Below, piece by piece: positions 1,065 through 46,159 of a stretch of DNA of 46,219 nucleotides (within the stretch, counting starts at the first letter, position 1; each line of letters starts with the position of its first letter). The position numbers and the translations under genes are program-made. Origin of the DNA: Escherichia phage Rtp; the sequence record NC_007603.1; one strand, 5' to 3'. Under the pieces are notes generated by a model, which had not been told where the DNA came from, did no database searches, and worked only from the letters and a program-made list of their open reading frames with translations.

Positions 1065-1123
1065 TGTTTGATTTTACCGAAGAGAAGCTGACAGATGAGC
1101 AGGTTATGAGGATTGTAGAATGA
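1064..1123 (+). CDS. 19-codon ORF MFDFTEEKLTDEQVMRIVE, homologous to the N-terminus of the 42193..43776 protein (possible gene remnant or translated mini-ORF)
   Basis: Strong SD AAGGAG 8 nt upstream, TAATG overlap with upstream stop; 13 of 17 residues match MFDFNEDKLSVEQVMAI of the minus-strand P-loop protein. Confidence 0.3.
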   Translation: MFDFTEEKLTDEQVMRIVE

Positions 1124-1383
1124 AACGTTTAATGAAATGCATGACTATTATTGCGGCAATGGTTGCTCTTACTGGCTGCAAGAAGGCGTCGGAGGTTCAG
1201 ATTCAGTCAGGTGAGTTCAATGTGGAGCGTCTATTCACAGTGGATGGATGTACCGCCTACCGATTCCTAGATAACAGTAGAGCCGTCTACTACACAAATT
1301 GCCATGGCAGTACGCAGAGTGAGTACAAGTCAGGCAGGGTCATGAAACAAGAAACAGTTCAGACAGATCGCACGAATTGGTAA
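1120..1383 (+). CDS. putative lipoprotein (87 aa)
   Basis: N-terminal signal with lipobox LTGC (MKRLMKCMTIIAAMVALTGC); GAGGA SD 7 nt upstream of ATG. Confidence 0.6.
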   Translation: MKRLMKCMTIIAAMVALTGCKKASEVQIQSGEFNVERLFTVDGCTAYRFLDNSRAVYYTNCHGSTQSEYKSGRVMKQETVQTDRTNW

Positions 1384-4892: not shown

Positions 4893-4969
4893 GCCCCGCT
4901 AGCTCAATTGGATAGAGCAACGACCTTCTAAGTCGTAGGTTACTGGTTCGAATCCAGTGCGGAGCGCCA
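4893..4969 (+). tRNA. tRNA-Arg (anticodon UCU)
   Basis: Hand-folded cloverleaf: acceptor GCCCCGC/GCGGAGC (one C-A mismatch), D-arm GCTC-AATTGGATA-GAGC, anticodon arm ACGAC-CTTCTAA-GTCGT, T-arm ACTGG-TTCGAAT-CCAGT, encoded CCA. Confidence 0.7.
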
Positions 4970-6387: not shown

Positions 6388-6864
6388 ATGAATTGGCATG
6401 ATATTTTTGATTATGATGGATGTAATTTATACAGAAGGGATTCTGGAAAAAAGGCTGGAACAAAAGCGGGCCCTAGAGGTTACATTCAGTGCAGAGTTGG
6501 TGGTGGACTACCTAAGGTTTATGCTCACAGGATTATATGGGAGATGCACAATGACAAGATACCTAACAGCATGGTTGTTGACCACATTAACCACATATAC
6601 GACGACAATAGAATTGAAAACCTAAGGTTAGTAACAGTTAAGGAAAATTCTAGCAACATTAAGAGATCAAAGAGAAATACAAGTGGCATACAAGGAGTTA
6701 GGAGAAGGAGTGATAACGGAAATTGGTACGCGGACTTAAGAGTTGATGGAAAGCTAAGGCAAATGCCAATGCGACATTGCTTTGAAGACGCAGCAGCCGA
6801 TAGGATATATCTTGAAGTGTACCACGGGTTTCATCCAAATCATGGAGCAATAGTAAATGAGTGA
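6388..6864 (+). CDS. HNH endonuclease with AP2 domain (homing endonuclease-like)
   Basis: HRIIWEMHNDKIPNSMVVDHINHIYDDNRIENLRLV motif; paralog of 21464..21979; sits between terS and terL. Confidence 0.8.
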   Translation: MNWHDIFDYDGCNLYRRDSGKKAGTKAGPRGYIQCRVGGGLPKVYAHRIIWEMHNDKIPNSMVVDHINHIYDDNRIENLRLVTVKENSSNIKRSKRNTSGIQGVRRRSDNGNWYADLRVDGKLRQMPMRHCFEDAAADRIYLEVYHGFHPNHGAIVNE

Positions 6865-8499: not shown

Positions 8500-8856
8500 A
8501 TGGCACGCACTTCAAAGGCTGTATATCTTGGCAACAACGATGATGTGTATTATGGTTTCACCGTAGGTAAGGAATATGAGATTGTATCGTATACTGGTGA
8601 TGACCTCATTCTGATCGCTGATGATGATGGCGAATGCCGTGGCATCAATAACGGGGCATTCCACAAGTTCGAACTCTCAGAAACAGAATGCGCAGCCGCA
8701 GCCACTGGCAATAATAAAAGACCAGATCTCAGATATTACATAAACGGACATGAGGTTGATTTACTTGAGTTTGACAAAGTTCGCTCTCACACCCTTGAGC
8801 TTGCCCACCTAGGCGTAAAATGCGACACAATAAAGTTCGAGGTAAAATTCGAGTAA
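8500..8856 (+). CDS. hypothetical protein (118 aa), moron-like insert between terL and portal
   Basis: Own cassette promoter upstream, own terminator downstream; SD GAGAGGAG. Confidence 0.6.
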   Translation: MARTSKAVYLGNNDDVYYGFTVGKEYEIVSYTGDDLILIADDDGECRGINNGAFHKFELSETECAAAATGNNKRPDLRYYINGHEVDLLEFDKVRSHTLELAHLGVKCDTIKFEVKFE

Positions 8857-15612: not shown

Positions 15613-16269
15613 ATGGCTCATTTATCAAACGGCACTCAGGTGCTCGTAGAAGGCTCCCGTGGTGATGCTATTGCCGTTACTGCAATCTCTAACGCCGCCA
15701 GCCCAGTCCTAACTGTTGATGATGCTTCTGGCATTGTTGTTGGTGATTACCTGCTGTTTACAGCATCTGCTTCCACGCTGCTGGCTGACAAGCAAGTTCG
15801 CGTAACTGCGGTAAGTGGCACATCTGTTACGGTAGAGGGCATTGATACCTCCAGCACCACAAAATTCCCGGCAGGTTTAACTGGTGAAGTTGTTAAGATT
15901 CTTTCCTGGTTCGAAGTTCCGTGTGTTCAGGACGTTTCCACTGATGGCGGCGAACAGCAGTTCGTTAACTTCCAGTGTCTTTCTGATGACCGTGAACAGA
16001 AGATTCCTACTTATAAGTCTGCGGTAACTAACACCTTCACTTTCGCGCATGAGTACACTAACCCGGTCTATCCGGTTCTTCGTGACTATGATGAGTCTGG
16101 TCAGGTTGTTGCGATTCGCCTGTTTGTACCTCGCGCTCAGGAAATGCGTTTGCAGTCCGGCACTATCGCTTTCAATGACACCCCGACCATTGGCGTTAAC
16201 GAAATCGAAACGGTATCCATCGCAGTATCCATTCGCGGTCGACTGTCCTCTGTGGCAGCTGAAGTTTAA
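15613..16269 (+). CDS. major tail protein
   Basis: 218 aa directly upstream of chaperone/tape-measure genes; strong terminator follows. Confidence 0.65.
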   Translation: MAHLSNGTQVLVEGSRGDAIAVTAISNAASPVLTVDDASGIVVGDYLLFTASASTLLADKQVRVTAVSGTSVTVEGIDTSSTTKFPAGLTGEVVKILSWFEVPCVQDVSTDGGEQQFVNFQCLSDDREQKIPTYKSAVTNTFTFAHEYTNPVYPVLRDYDESGQVVAIRLFVPRAQEMRLQSGTIAFNDTPTIGVNEIETVSIAVSIRGRLSSVAAEV

Positions 16270-16276
16270 AACACAA

Positions 16277-16297
16277 ACCCTCTTCGGAGGGTTTTTT
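16277..16297 (+). terminator. rho-independent terminator
   Basis: CCCTC-TTCG-GAGGG hairpin plus T6. Confidence 0.65.
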
Positions 16298-16303
16298 ATT
16301 GCA

Positions 16304-16346
16304 TAGCACTTTTTGCTAAAGCGCTTATTAAAATTTGCTGTATATT
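16304..16346 (+). promoter_or_regulatory. palindrome-promoter cassette inside the tail module
   Basis: TAGCACTTTTTGCTAAA; 22-bp spacer; TATATT 16341-16346; leader TACCTTATCGAAACGAAA. Confidence 0.5.
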
Positions 16347-16379
16347 TACCTTATCGAAACGAAATGAGAGATTAAAGAA

Positions 16380-16766
16380 ATGAAAGCAATCATCGCAATT
16401 ATGGCAACCTTGTTACTTGCTGGATGCAACTCAGATAAAGTAAAGACACTCAACGTTGACCTCACTGCAAACGAATGCAAGAACATCGTATACAACGCAA
16501 CGGTTAACAATGAATCATTTACTCATATTTCATTCAAATACCCAGATCTAAAGGATGCCGTTATGTACGTATCGCACATTGAATGCACGAAAACTGTTAG
16601 CAACTTTACACGTGGTGTTGTGATTGAGCGCACTGCAACATTGGCAAAGGTATCAAAGCCTAGTGACGCTTCAATTGAGATGGTTTATACTAAGCTCTAC
16701 AGTTTAGAAGGTTTCGCTAAGGAAGTTGGCGAGAAGCTGGCTTACTCACGCGTTGTTATGAAATAA
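16380..16766 (+). CDS. putative lipoprotein (128 aa), moron within the tail gene cluster
   Basis: Signal peptide with lipobox LAGC (MKAIIAIMATLLLAGCNSD); own cassette promoter upstream. Confidence 0.6.
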   Translation: MKAIIAIMATLLLAGCNSDKVKTLNVDLTANECKNIVYNATVNNESFTHISFKYPDLKDAVMYVSHIECTKTVSNFTRGVVIERTATLAKVSKPSDASIEMVYTKLYSLEGFAKEVGEKLAYSRVVMK

Positions 16767-16784: not shown

Positions 16785-17099
16785 ATGGCAAAGTTCAAAC
16801 TTTCACTGGCGGCACTGCCAGACTTCAAGCTACCAGTAAAATTCAAACTGGCTAACGACCAGGATGTAGAGGTTATCTTTACGGTCAAGCACAAGAAGAC
16901 CTCAGAGCTTCAGGAGTTACTACAAAAAGAAGACTTAAGCACTAAAGAATTGATTACGGCAATCGCCTCTGATTGGGATCTGGAAGAAGAATTTAATGAA
17001 GAAAACGTCATTGAGTTTGCTGACCTATTCCCAGCTTCTACAGTTGCATTAACTACTGCTTATATGCAGGCACTGGCGGGTCAGCGAGTAAAAAACTAA
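16785..17099 (+). CDS. tail assembly chaperone (lambda G-like)
   Basis: 104 aa directly upstream of the tape measure; slippery heptamer A_AAA_AAC at its 3' end. Confidence 0.65.
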   Translation: MAKFKLSLAALPDFKLPVKFKLANDQDVEVIFTVKHKKTSELQELLQKEDLSTKELITAIASDWDLEEEFNEENVIEFADLFPASTVALTTAYMQALAGQRVKN

Positions 17100-17419
17100 A
17101 ACGAGCGGTGTATCTACAGTACCAGTCAGACCCAACCGATGCTGAACTGGAAGCTATTGGGATGCGCCGCTCTGATTACGAAGATGAAGAGCCTGAAGTT
17201 TTACACTTCGACGACAACATGATGAAGGCGTGGGACATTTATTGTTCAATGGCTACACAGTGGAGAGTCGGAGCTAACGGAGCTACAGGCCTAGATTACA
17301 GCGTGCTAAACTTCCTCTTTAGAGTGTATAATGTTTCTGAAGAAGAATTGGTGCTCAGCGATTTACGCATCCTTGAAGCTAAGGCTCTAGAGATGATGGA
17401 TAACCTGAGAAAAAAATAA
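17096..17419 (+). CDS. tail assembly chaperone -1 frameshift extension (GT-like product, in-frame continuation after slip at 17090-17096)
   Basis: -1 frame open from 17096 to 17419; ORF track 17108..17419 has only a GTG start and a weak SD, consistent with expression by frameshift. Confidence 0.5.
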   Translation, partial: LKRAVYLQYQSDPTDAELEAIGMRRSDYEDEEPEVLHFDDNMMKAWDIYCSMATQWRVGANGATGLDYSVLNFLFRVYNVSEEELVLSDLRILEAKALEMMDNLRKK

Positions 17420-17440
17420 CCCGCTTCGGCGGGTTTTCTA
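17419..17440 (+). terminator. rho-independent terminator-like hairpin
   Basis: ACCCGC-TTCG-GCGGGT followed by TTTTCTATT. Confidence 0.45.
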
Positions 17441-21463: not shown

Positions 21464-21979
21464 ATGAATTGGCATGATTACTTTAGATATGAAGACGGCA
21501 AGTTATACTGGATTAGCTTTCCAAACCCAGAGCAGACAAGGAGCGTAAAGATAGGAGATGTTGCTGGATACAAACACCCTGACAACAAGGGTTACATTAG
21601 GGTTCAAGTTATGGGTAAGATGCTAAGGGTCCATCGCGTGATATGGGAAATGCATAACGGAAAAATACCAGAAGGCATGGAGATTGACCACATAAATGGG
21701 ATTAGATCAGACAACAGAATTGAAAACCTAAGAATTGTTAATGGTCTTGAGAACATGAAAAATAAGGGGATTTATAAAAACAACAAAACTGGATTTGTTG
21801 GGGTTGAGAAAATTAAAGCAAACGGAAAGTACAGGGCAAGCATAAGAGTTAATAAAAAACTTATTTTTCTAGGTGAGTATATTTCAATTGAAGATGCCAT
21901 TGACGCTAGAAAGAAAGCTGAATGTGAATACCTTTTCCATAAGAATCACGGAGTTAGAAATGCTTACACCAAAAGTTAA
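21464..21979 (+). CDS. HNH endonuclease with AP2 domain (homing endonuclease-like), paralog of 6388..6864
   Basis: HRVIWEMHNGKIPEGMEIDHINGIRSDNRIENLRIV motif; inserted between L-like and K-like tail genes. Confidence 0.8.
   Translation: MNWHDYFRYEDGKLYWISFPNPEQTRSVKIGDVAGYKHPDNKGYIRVQVMGKMLRVHRVIWEMHNGKIPEGMEIDHINGIRSDNRIENLRIVNGLENMKNKGIYKNNKTGFVGVEKIKANGKYRASIRVNKKLIFLGEYISIEDAIDARKKAECEYLFHKNHGVRNAYTKS

Positions 21980-27686: not shown

Positions 27687-27687
<1 letters not shown>
26752..27687 (-). CDS. putative receptor-binding protein (tail tip), G/S/T/N-rich
   Basis: 311 aa; AAGGAG SD; TAATG overlap with the upstream lipoprotein gene; composition typical of fibre or RBP proteins; located after the J-like gene as expected for T1-like RBP loci (from memory). 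Confidence 0.45.
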
Positions 27688-28000
<313 letters not shown>

Positions 28001-33738: not shown

Positions 33739-33803
33739 TGTGTAAAGTCTCCATTTGTAAAATAGCACGAATTGCTAAGTTGGATTGTAGCATCTTTCAG
33801 GCA

Positions 33804-34807: not shown

Positions 34808-35281
34808 TTACTCTTTAGCTTTTCGTGCTGCCTCATTAGCGGCCTTGATCTTTCTCCATGAACGACACTCTGGTTTGGTTGCTAACTCGGACTCAGTAAC
34901 CACACGCAGCATGTGACGCTTCTTGCACCGTAATGTCAGCGGCTTTCCGTTGCCGTCGAATTGCAGGTCTGGTCGGCAGAATGTAGCGCGAAAACCTTCT
35001 CCATTTCGCTTGTAGTAGTTGTGAGAAAGCTGAGCGCCGCGAGCAGATATCATTCCACGCTTAAACCATTCCTCTACAGCCTGTGGTGTTACCTTTAACT
35101 GCTTTGCGATATTCGCCTTTGTGCCGAAGAAATCAAGAACAATCTCCAGTCGCGCGCGCAACCCTGCCCTTACTTCATCTTTCAAAACGTAGTAACCTGA
35201 AGGTCGTTTTCGTTGTTTTTTGTCTTCAGTGCGGACAGTTCCGTTATTACCGTTGATTGTTCTCTTGTCGACTGTATTCAT
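34808..35281 (-). CDS. putative HTH DNA-binding protein
   Basis: IAKQLKVTPQAVEEWFKRG resembles a Cro/C1-type helix-turn-helix; basic N-terminus. Confidence 0.5.
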   Translation of the reverse strand: MNTVDKRTINGNNGTVRTEDKKQRKRPSGYYVLKDEVRAGLRARLEIVLDFFGTKANIAKQLKVTPQAVEEWFKRGMISARGAQLSHNYYKRNGEGFRATFCRPDLQFDGNGKPLTLRCKKRHMLRVVTESELATKPECRSWRKIKAANEAARKAKE

Positions 35282-35294
35282 TTCATTACCTCAA

Positions 35295-35336
35295 TAGCAT
35301 TTTTTGTTAAAAGTCATTCTGATTTGATGGTAGTAT
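35295..35336 (+). promoter_or_regulatory. palindrome-promoter cassette (variant TAGCATTTTTTGTTAAAAG)
   Basis: Motif plus TAGTAT at 35331-35336 upstream of the helicase gene. Confidence 0.4.
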
Positions 35337-40988: not shown

Positions 40989-41474
40989 ATGAAGCAGAAG
41001 CTAGTGGTTGGTGCTGCGACCGCTGCGGCAATATACATCGCAGCGCCGCTTATTGAGCTTGTTGAAGGCGTAGAGAATAAGCCATACATGGATATTGCTG
41101 GAATCCCTACAGTTTGCGCCGGCGTTACTGGCCCTGACGTGGTTTGGGGAAAGAATTACAGCAATAGAGAGTGCCGAAAACTTCTAGAGAAGCACATTCA
41201 GATTCATGGCAAGTATGTTGAGGATGCAGTTACCTACCCAATTGCACCTCAGACGAGAGCGGCCTTAATCAGCTTTAGCTATAACGTTGGCGGCTCCTCG
41301 ATGAGGAAATCTACGGCTGTAAGGCTAATCAACCAGGGCAAAGTGGAGCAAGGTTGTAAGGCTTTGGGTCTTTGGAATAAAGCTACCGTTAATGGCAGGA
41401 AGGTTGTGGTTAAGGGGTTGGTGAATCGCAGGAATGAGGAGATTAAGTTATGCTTAAGTGGATTGCAGCGTTAG
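40989..41474 (+). CDS. SAR endolysin (phage lysozyme, P21 R-like)
   Basis: N-terminal signal-anchor-release segment VVGAATAAAIYIAAPLI followed by a lysozyme-like catalytic region resembling P21 R as recalled. Confidence 0.75.
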   Translation: MKQKLVVGAATAAAIYIAAPLIELVEGVENKPYMDIAGIPTVCAGVTGPDVVWGKNYSNRECRKLLEKHIQIHGKYVEDAVTYPIAPQTRAALISFSYNVGGSSMRKSTAVRLINQGKVEQGCKALGLWNKATVNGRKVVVKGLVNRRNEEIKLCLSGLQR

Positions 41475-41839
41475 TAATGTGCGTAGCTTTATCTGGATGC
41501 TCAGCAACATCTGCTCTGACCGGATTAATTGGCAGTAAGCCAGAGATTAGCGCTCAAGCTGGTGCAGAAAATAATAAGGTTGGTGTTGGGTTAACGAACA
41601 AGGTTGACTCAAGTAACTCAAGTGAAGCCACGGTTAAAGATTCTAATGTTGGGTCACTGGATAGCTCGAGCGGGAAAAAGACTGCTGACAACTCGATTAA
41701 GGCCTCAACAATCACTGCCGAAAAGATTGAAATTACCAATAACGAATCATCAGCGCTTCCGTGGGTTGGAACAGGAGCTATGGGGTTGCTGGTTTTAATT
41801 CTCATGGCATTAATCTTAAGACGTAAAAAAGCCTCCTAA
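41450..41839 (+). CDS. unimolecular spanin-like lipoprotein (u-spanin)
   Basis: N-terminal lipobox LSGC plus C-terminal transmembrane segment (GLLVLILMALIL) then RRKK; position after the endolysin. Confidence 0.6.
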   Translation: MLKWIAALVMCVALSGCSATSALTGLIGSKPEISAQAGAENNKVGVGLTNKVDSSNSSEATVKDSNVGSLDSSSGKKTADNSIKASTITAEKIEITNNESSALPWVGTGAMGLLVLILMALILRRKKAS

Positions 41840-43776: not shown

Positions 43777-43962
43777 TACTTCTCTCCGTGTTGTTTCTGA
43801 GCGGCCATTATATCAACGACCGCTTATAATTCATTATCAATTTGTGCTATTAATTGTTCTTAATCCACTTTAGACACATCCAGGTGCCAGCAACGTAAAG
43901 CGCTAGCTTTGCTAACTCGTACGCTAAGTGTGTAAATAAAGCAAAATTAGAAATAAGCTCAC

Positions 43963-46117: not shown

Positions 46118-46159
46118 TATTACCAGTTTCTCGATTTATGTCTTTAGCAAAAAGTGCTA
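46118..46159 (-). promoter_or_regulatory. palindrome-promoter cassette (minus strand), second tandem copy
   Basis: Minus-strand TAGCACTTTTTGCTAA, about 20-bp spacer, TAATAT. Confidence 0.4.

Follow-up and report, generated by a model that had tools for sequence, protein, structure and literature searches.

The genome of Escherichia phage Rtp, a virulent T1-like coliphage (Drexlerviridae, Braunvirinae), was analysed at its complete length of 46,219 nucleotides (nt) (sequence record NC_007603.1; here called the window), and the present report concerns a small gene in its tail gene cluster, rtp34, together with the promoter-like cassette in front of it. The gene (16380..16766, plus strand) has an ATG start and encodes a 128-amino-acid (aa) prolipoprotein that starts MKAIIAIMATLLLAGC and is 100% identical to the entry 'hypothetical protein rtp34 [Escherichia phage Rtp]'. 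It is an uncharacterised accessory gene of a published genome, already labelled 'lipoprotein' in UniRef; no mention of rtp34 or of Rtp52, a putative regulator of Rtp, was found in the literature searched, outside which lies the 2006 work of Wietzorrek et al. Comparison with related genomes indicates that rtp34 is an accessory insertion in the tail gene cluster. An earlier note on this DNA had described it as a lipoprotein moron with an early-type promoter of its own; the 128-aa reading frame with lipobox LAGC is indeed present, with some 30 homologues in frame, and it is the promoter and the term moron that need revision.

On the 5' side of rtp34 lies the gene for the major tail (tube) protein (15613..16269, plus strand; Pfam Phage_tail_3, 5e-68; phrog_584, 3e-85), which ends in an intrinsic-terminator-like hairpin with a UUCG loop, AAACCCTCTTCGGAGGGTTT (stem 16275-16294, T-run to 16299, plus strand). 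The terminator scan thus recovers the major-tail terminator that had been placed at 16277-16297, and the element, at 16275..16299, is invariant across nine related loci. The cassette follows on the same strand and consists of the inverted repeat TAGCAC-TTT-TTGCTA, TAGCACTTTTTGCTA (16304..16318), recognised by its repetition in the window and its conservation in relatives, and, exactly 22 nt past it, the −10-like hexamer TATATT (16341..16346), at a spacing common to cassette copies. The leader of rtp34 (16347..16379, plus strand) contains a conserved block, ATCGAAACGAAA (16353-16364), and the Shine-Dalgarno sequence GAGAGA (16366-16371), and is identical in relatives up to the ATGAA of the start codon. 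Just 5' of that start, overlapping the Shine-Dalgarno sequence, is a 3-codon mini-ORF (open reading frame), ATG AGA GAT TAA (ATGAGAGATTAA; 16364-16375, plus strand), identical in the phages AugustePiccard, JulesPiccard, and EC3a but not in MM01 or at the related locus L018.

On the 3' side, the gene for tail assembly chaperone G (16785..17099, plus strand; Pfam Phage_TAC_4, 3e-34) starts 18 nt past the rtp34 stop codon. The −1 slippery heptamer A AAA AAC can be read from the sequence at the end of G (17090-17096, plus strand), and a −1 shift at this point leads into the frame of the T part (ORF 17108-17419, plus strand; Pfam DUF1799, 1e-15; phrog_680), giving a G-T fusion. In the 18 nt that separate the stop codon of rtp34 from the start of G, the terminator scan found no hairpin, and the first terminator-like hairpin 3' of rtp34 is at 17418..17435 (plus strand). 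Because no terminator separates rtp34 from G, the transcription unit is inferred to consist of rtp34, G, and G-T and to end at 17418-17435, and is not a self-contained moron. The term moron fits to the extent that rtp34 is an extra gene, absent at this position from related genomes, but rtp34 has no terminator of its own. Its GC content is 40.3%, compared with a mean of 45.9% for the structural region (4th percentile).

The earlier note had proposed checking the presence or absence of the gene in related phages. The slot that separates the chaperone gene from the major tail gene holds no ORF in Jk06 (Rogunavirinae), LL5 and PeterMerian (Tempevirinae), or SH6 (Tunavirinae), nor in Klebsiella phage K50_evo12 (a record without family assignment) or six Rogunavirinae-like loci from IMG/VR. 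In other Drexlerviridae the empty slot measures 70-115 nt and contains, besides a terminator, the extended −10-like sequence TGnTAnAAT; every member of the family examined has a terminator at this junction with a promoter-like element after it. In Rtp-like phages the slot is always filled, with different genes, and in most close relatives the gene is unrelated to rtp34: 82 Rtp-like isolates carry a gene for a secreted protein of 82 aa, which has a signal peptide and, in addition, two conserved cysteines, while rtp34 is carried, besides Rtp, by only three phages, AugustePiccard, MM01, and RobRod40. The AugustePiccard protein is the best match to Rtp34 (89.8%) in an annotated phage collection that does not include Rtp itself, and the MM01 copy is 89% identical. 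The slot of TR1 holds a 126-aa lipoprotein with 31% identity to Rtp34. The 82-aa slot protein was considered as a truncated relative of Rtp34 and rejected (hhalign probability 0.5%); its AlphaFold2 model has a predicted local distance difference test (pLDDT) score of 60.7, too poor for a fold search.

When the filled slots are aligned as DNA, identity extends from the terminator through the ATGAA of the start and is followed by full divergence up to the ribosome-binding site of the chaperone gene. Since terminator, cassette, leader, and ribosome-binding site are conserved whatever the slot gene, the promoter is as much a property of the position as of the gene. The independent promoter that had been claimed for rtp34 is, then, directly upstream of the gene as stated, but it is probably shared with the chaperone genes. 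In TR1-type loci, the sequence TTTATGTGATACAAT 3' of the lipoprotein gene aligns with the post-terminator T-run and extended −10 element of Rogunavirinae, TTTTTATGTTATAAT; this appears to be the remnant that insertion of a cassette plus gene between the terminator and an ancestral chaperone promoter would leave. Rtp-type loci have since lost the ancestral extended −10 chaperone promoter, with only the 18-nt gap remaining.

The cassette is not confined to the tail gene cluster. With up to one mismatch allowed, the window contains 19 occurrences of the inverted repeat where 1.82 would be expected, and no shuffle out of 100 gave as many as 19. Sixteen copies follow the composite TAGCAC-N3-TTGCTA, 22 nt, TATAnT, starting on the plus strand at 2360, 3078, 4028, 6317, 8426, 16304, 21394, 29629, 33763, 35295, 37796, and 38479 and on the minus strand at 43849, 44965, 45918, and 46159, and every one is co-oriented with the genes of its region. 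The −10-like hexamer is exactly 22 nt 3' of the repeat in 14 of the 16 (it is missing at 33763 and 35295), and an ORF lies downstream of all except those at 33763 and 46159, with the first start approximately 70-90 nt from the cassette start. Several copies are followed by a similar leader (...CATCGAAACGAAA...GAGAG...). Across the nine related loci, the terminator, the inverted repeat, the −10 block CTGTATAKTT, the leader, and the ribosome-binding site are conserved and the 22-nt spacer varies, and conserved blocks with a free spacer look like the footprint expected of a functional promoter. The distance of 22 nt from TTGCTA to the −10 hexamer is too great for a −35 element. The promoter proposed at 16304-16346 is thus borne out as a repeated and conserved element but not as a match to the sigma-70 consensus, and its function is therefore deduced from repetition and conservation. 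If transcription were to start near 16353, about 7 nt past the −10 hexamer, the inverted repeat would be centered near −42, where class II activator sites classically lie.

The label early-type does not appear justified for the cassette. Copies of it stand before genes for helicases, for the Erf recombinase, and for two HNH endonucleases, before many small ORFs, and also before a putative structural gene. Canonical sigma-70 sites are rare in the genome (five sites with at least 10 of 12 matches, mostly inside genes), so that no separate late promoter class can be defined as a contrast, and because of this scarcity the cassette looks like the general or main promoter type of the phage. No transcriptome of any T1-like phage was found in the literature search. 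The only case of a cassette before a putative structural gene is in the head-gene region, where a 118-aa gene (8500-8856, plus strand) matches phrog_14592, labelled 'virion structural protein' in PHROGs. Two copies have unusual surroundings. The one at 33763-33777 (plus strand) is without a −10 hexamer and runs into a terminator-like hairpin with no obvious gene after it, while that at 46145-46159 (minus strand) has TAATAT, and a script for ORFs of at least 30 aa with a ribosome-binding site found none downstream. These two copies may serve purely as operators, or a non-coding RNA may be transcribed from them.

A factor that could act on the inverted repeat is encoded by rtp52 (34808..35281, minus strand), a putative Cro-type regulator of 157 aa with a weak match to P22_Cro (E 4e-6, below the curated cut-off). 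A published gene table (PMC5816109) has a gene of this size, at this position, entered as 'putative transcriptional regulator (phage Rtp)'. The cassette repeat at 35295 lies in the divergent intergenic region of rtp52. Wietzorrek et al. are reported to have described, in 2006, ten inverted repeats that are conserved and lie upstream of genes of Rtp, and to have proposed Rtp52 as their regulator. Rtp52 is accordingly taken here as a candidate for the factor acting on the cassette. In PeterMerian (locus L008, ~1555-1575) and SH6 (locus L009, ~1565-1585), which have no slot gene, the inverted repeat is present in the opposite orientation (TTAACAAAAAGTGCTA), between the extended −10 element and the chaperone ribosome-binding site; such a position would be more typical of a repressor than of an activator.

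Rtp34 has the features of an exported lipoprotein. Its N-terminus, MK-AIIAIMATLL-LAGC, comprises a signal peptide (residues 1-15) and the lipobox L-A-G-C (residues 13-16; codon of Cys16 at 16425-16427), and so combines the positive N-terminus, hydrophobic stretch, and lipobox of the form [LVI][ASTVI][GAS]C within the first ~30 residues that are looked for in lipoprotein signals; Pfam LPAM_1 scores 14.4 bits, below its 20-bit cut-off. The lipobox cysteine is present in 17 of 18 aligned family members, including both distant homologues (P0031 and P0032), the exception being P0014, which has a plain signal peptide. Under the +2 rule of the Lol pathway in E. coli, Asn at this residue leads to the outer membrane and Asp to retention in the inner membrane. 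Since the residue is Asn in Rtp34, as in the TR1 type, sorting to the outer membrane is predicted; P0031 has Asp. Variable anchors suggest a periplasmic target rather than one requiring outer-membrane anchoring. The metagenomic phage that carries P0014 has a major tail protein of 315 aa (L016, 790-1737), ~100 residues over the usual 216-218 aa, which suggests an added decoration domain.

Two further cysteines, Cys33 (16476-16478) and Cys69 (16584-16586), are invariant, distant members included. In the AlphaFold2 model of Rtp34, which is a confident one (pLDDT 84.8, predicted template modelling score 0.75), they lie in two long helices, and this placement, together with their invariance, argues for a Cys33-Cys69 disulfide and hence for an extracytoplasmic location. 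The model has no fold relative in PDB or BFVD. The ratio of nonsynonymous to synonymous substitution rates (dN/dS) is 0.12-0.22 for rtp34 compared with 0.02-0.10 for the major tail and chaperone genes in the same genome pairs. By this measure rtp34 is a real gene under purifying selection, evolving faster than its neighbors.

The family to which Rtp34 belongs is very small: a search of 5.8 billion proteins gave 14 close and 16 TR1-type sequences, and a profile search of 1.84 billion cluster representatives returned only five clusters. The ~30 homologues keep the reading frame, and all close members occupy the same slot. Searches for a host or plasmid origin covered 5,426 complete E. coli genomes and the plasmids of PLSDB and gave no match to Rtp34, and a scan of IMG/VR with the family alignment returned Rtp itself only. 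Nothing above threshold was found for Rtp34 in Pfam, PHROGs, NCBIfam, PADLOC, or the PDB sequences; the weak sub-threshold matches (LPAM_1, TrbK, YecR, and phrog_902, phrog_6360, and phrog_1754) can be traced to the signal peptide. The lipoproteins P0031 and P0032 come from other T1-like phages, in which their genes follow a VRR-NUC gene in the replication/lysis region, both with a cassette of this type immediately before them. Their order differs relative to a shared neighbor gene: one distant-homologue phage has cassette, lipoprotein gene, and neighbor gene, while that of P0032 has cassette, neighbor gene, cassette, lipoprotein gene, and terminator. Since cassettes precede both genes in differing order, the family moves between cassette sites; as far as gene order can show, it travels among T1-like phages with the cassette or into sites behind it. 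P0032 appears to fit the full promoter-plus-terminator definition of a moron, and rtp34 does not. An 82-aa gene adjoining P0031 was considered as a member of the slot's 82-aa family and rejected, its product being an unrelated, cytoplasmic-looking protein.

The explanation that is preferred overall, although it is given somewhat less than an even chance, is that rtp34 encodes a cassette-driven accessory periplasmic lipoprotein, superinfection-exclusion-like and mobile among T1-like phages; the protective periplasmic role itself, whether superinfection-exclusion-like or of another kind, is likewise proposed tentatively, on the model of HK97 gp15 and of phage lipoproteins generally. Transcription would proceed from the cassette, with the inverted repeat near −42 and Rtp52 as candidate factor, and would probably continue into the chaperone genes G and G-T. 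The product, a predicted substrate of signal peptidase II, would be exported by the Sec pathway, lipidated on Cys16, and, given Asn at +2, passed on through the Lol pathway to the outer membrane, in whose inner leaflet it would be anchored. Its compact helical domain of ~110 residues, probably stapled by Cys33-Cys69, would then face the periplasm. There, Rtp34 would act on the envelope of the infected cell, and would either block a periplasmic infection step of other, probably related, phages or protect the infected cell or its progeny.

Several observations weigh against this explanation. Rtp is virulent and already encodes an exclusion lipoprotein, Rtp45. A scan for sigma-70 promoters (−35/−10, 16-18 nt spacing) called none at 16300-16380, and the cassette may serve mainly to restart transcription of the chaperone genes. 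The anchor varies in the family (plain signal peptide in P0014, Asp at +2 in P0031), which is a difficulty if outer-membrane anchoring is needed. The GC content at third codon positions of rtp34 (42.6%) is barely different from that of its neighbors (43-47%).

A restart function for the cassette is the alternative with the most in its favor, and it has perhaps a one-in-three prospect at best: the cassette would mainly resume transcription of the chaperone genes after the strong major-tail terminator, and rtp34 would be a passenger on the late tail-gene schedule with no promoter of its own. The conservation of terminator, cassette, leader, and ribosome-binding site whatever the cargo is consistent with this, as are the gap of just 18 nt without a terminator between rtp34 and G, the presence of a terminator and promoter-like element at the junction in all Drexlerviridae examined, and the ancestral extended −10 chaperone promoter, lost in Rtp-type loci and kept in the TR1 type. 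However, subfamilies without a slot gene use the extended −10 element TGnTAnAAT at the junction and not the cassette, TR1-type loci have the cassette 5' and the extended −10 element 3' of the lipoprotein gene, and the distant homologues at other genome positions are also directly behind a cassette. That Rtp34 is instead a conserved component of the virion or of tail assembly is extremely improbable. The gene does lie between the major tail and chaperone genes and is probably co-transcribed with the latter, but the signal peptide and lipobox direct the protein out of the cytoplasm, the site of tail assembly, some homologues are encoded outside the tail module, and no tail family in Pfam or PHROGs is matched. 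Because it is predicted to be exported, Rtp34 is not a tail component or a cytoplasmic assembly factor. The earlier note had named two findings that would count against a moron, a conserved virion part or presence in all relatives; the product is instead predicted to be exported, and the gene is patchily distributed, being absent from most relatives and from whole subfamilies.

The earlier note had also suggested receptor masking, and for the receptor of Rtp itself this is unlikely. Rtp45 (27687..27917, minus strand), encoded next to the receptor-binding gene rtp44, is a structurally characterised exclusion lipoprotein for LptD (bioRxiv 10.1101/2025.07.07.663478). That Rtp34 masks or modifies the terminal receptor LptD or a co-receptor alongside Rtp45 would agree with its prediction as an outer-membrane lipoprotein, as are Llp, Cor, and Rtp45, and with the presence of rtp34 in both Rtp and AugustePiccard, which both target LptD. 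Nevertheless, MM01 carries the 89%-identical rtp34 without rtp44 or rtp45, having a T1-type receptor-binding module and a Cor-like lipoprotein instead, and JeanPiccard targets LptD yet carries the 82-aa slot gene, as do many phages with an LptD-type receptor-binding protein; co-occurrence of rtp34 with the LptD-type module was rejected on these distributions. Since MM01 combines rtp34 with a different receptor module and Rtp45 already masks LptD, masking of the phage's own receptor is given very little credence, and rtp34 moreover lies away from the receptor-binding locus, unlike the gene of every known small-siphophage exclusion lipoprotein, and its product has no sequence or fold similarity to Llp. 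A role in the lytic program of Rtp itself, such as lysis timing, tuning of spanin or endolysin, or stabilising the envelope until lysis, is improbable: the predicted periplasmic location in a virulent phage, the positions of P0031 and P0032 within a few genes of a holin-endolysin cassette, and the variable anchors, which suggest a periplasmic rather than an outer-membrane target, speak for it, but in Rtp the gene is 25 kb from the lysis genes, most relatives lyse without it, the cassette of holin, endolysin, and u-spanin is complete on its own, and there is no similarity to known lysis regulators. A factor for counter-defence or host takeover, directed against an envelope barrier or a host periplasmic function, is only a shade less improbable. 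It would account for the patchy distribution, for a dN/dS 2-5 times that of the flanking genes, and for a slot with interchangeable unrelated periplasmic proteins, a pattern typical of arms-race genes; against it, no known anti-defence or defence protein is matched, there is no candidate target, and BASEL phages with and without rtp34 all grow on E. coli K-12.

The preferred explanation, an accessory protein of superinfection-exclusion type, can be taken further, although this extension is speculative and has only an outside chance of being right as a whole. The slot would be a hot spot for interchangeable periplasmic proteins (the Rtp34 type, the TR1 type, and the 82-aa protein) that block the genome-ejection machinery of superinfecting T1-like phages, with the tape measure or tail tip as targets, and this function would explain why their genes adjoin those for the chaperones and the tape measure. 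Cassettes with the Rtp52 box would be the substrates for recombination that move such genes around Drexlerviridae genomes. Rtp34 would then be a Gram-negative counterpart of two exclusion proteins, Ltp and gp15 of HK97, and would have a fold not seen before. If exclusion does take place after adsorption, Rtp34 would bring a new protein family and a new fold to the few Gram-negative exclusion factors whose target is not the receptor, and would matter for the design of phage cocktails and for fermentations with T1-type contamination. The architecture of slot and cassette offers a concrete, testable example of virulent T1-like phages swapping small envelope-directed genes, and experimental tools are ready in Rtp, the BASEL phages Bas01-03, and the Rtp45/LptDE system.

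Other features of the window were noted in passing. The earlier note had counted four lipobox proteins, and besides Rtp34 the other three were confirmed at 1120..1383 (plus strand), at 27687..27917 (Rtp45), and in the u-spanin (41450..41839, plus strand). The first is an uncharacterised 87-aa lipoprotein with lipobox LTGC in the left-end region of small genes (phrog_6360, 2e-22), with no homologue in MM01. The HNH endonuclease genes in the structural module (6388-6864 and 21464-21979, both plus strand; phrog_99, 6e-48 and 5e-63, respectively) are both directly behind a cassette and low in GC (39.8% and 36.6%), and look like cassette-associated insertions, as does rtp34. A single tRNA-Arg with anticodon TCT (4893-4969, plus strand) was found by both ARAGORN and Rfam, and MM01 has an equivalent tRNA.

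Among known systems, the small periplasm-facing phage lipoproteins Llp (T5), Cor (T1, phi80, and N15), and Rtp45 resemble Rtp34 in having an intramolecular disulfide, that of Rtp34 being predicted. They are, however, only 60-80 aa long, their genes are next to the gene for the receptor-binding protein, and their presence tracks the type of receptor. Rtp34 has 128 aa, a helical model, and no sequence or fold similarity to them, and its gene is ~10 kb upstream of rtp44 and rtp45 and present independently of receptor type. The cassette itself has a parallel in the promoter-early stem-loop (PeSL) elements, reportedly described by Arbiol et al. in 2010 as mobile regulatory cassettes of T4-type phages. 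Both are short promoter-containing repeats scattered in the genome that flank small accessory genes rearranged among relatives. PeSL elements differ in sequence, phage family, and architecture, the Rtp cassette having an inverted repeat and a −10 hexamer at a fixed 22 nt, and recombination at Rtp cassettes is proposed from gene order only.

Ltp is a lipoprotein of Streptococcus phage TP-J34 (PMC3952083). It is lipid-anchored, mainly helical, and extracytoplasmic, and these traits make it an appealing model for how Rtp34 might stop genome entry at the periplasm; however, it belongs to a temperate phage of a Gram-positive host, its gene is in the lysogeny module, and it has tandem helix-turn-helix-like domains. 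Bebeacua et al. (2013) are reported to have found that Ltp prevents the injection of DNA, with the tape measure protein as its target. The closest parallel in gene position is gp15 of HK97, a superinfection-exclusion moron inside the tail operon (Juhala et al. 2000; Cumby et al. 2012; reviewed in PMC3594210). Like rtp34, it is an extra small gene among siphophage tail genes, near the chaperone and tape-measure genes, with a promoter upstream and a product directed to the envelope rather than to the virion (both predicted in the case of rtp34), and is absent from related phages. The HK97 protein is YebO-like, is located in the inner membrane, and is expressed from the prophage of this temperate phage; its gene has a terminator of its own, and it has bacterial homologues. 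Rtp34, by contrast, is a lipoprotein of a virulent phage, its gene has no terminator of its own and lies upstream of the chaperone genes (gp15 is downstream), and no bacterial homologue was found. Expression from a repressed prophage to the advantage of the host, as a criterion for a moron in the Hendrix/Juhala sense (PMC3594210), probably does not apply to rtp34, because Rtp is virulent and no copy was found in the 5,426 E. coli genomes. The Rtp34 family and its fold are uncharacterised, but the kind of feature, envelope-directed accessory genes in siphophage tail operons, is known.

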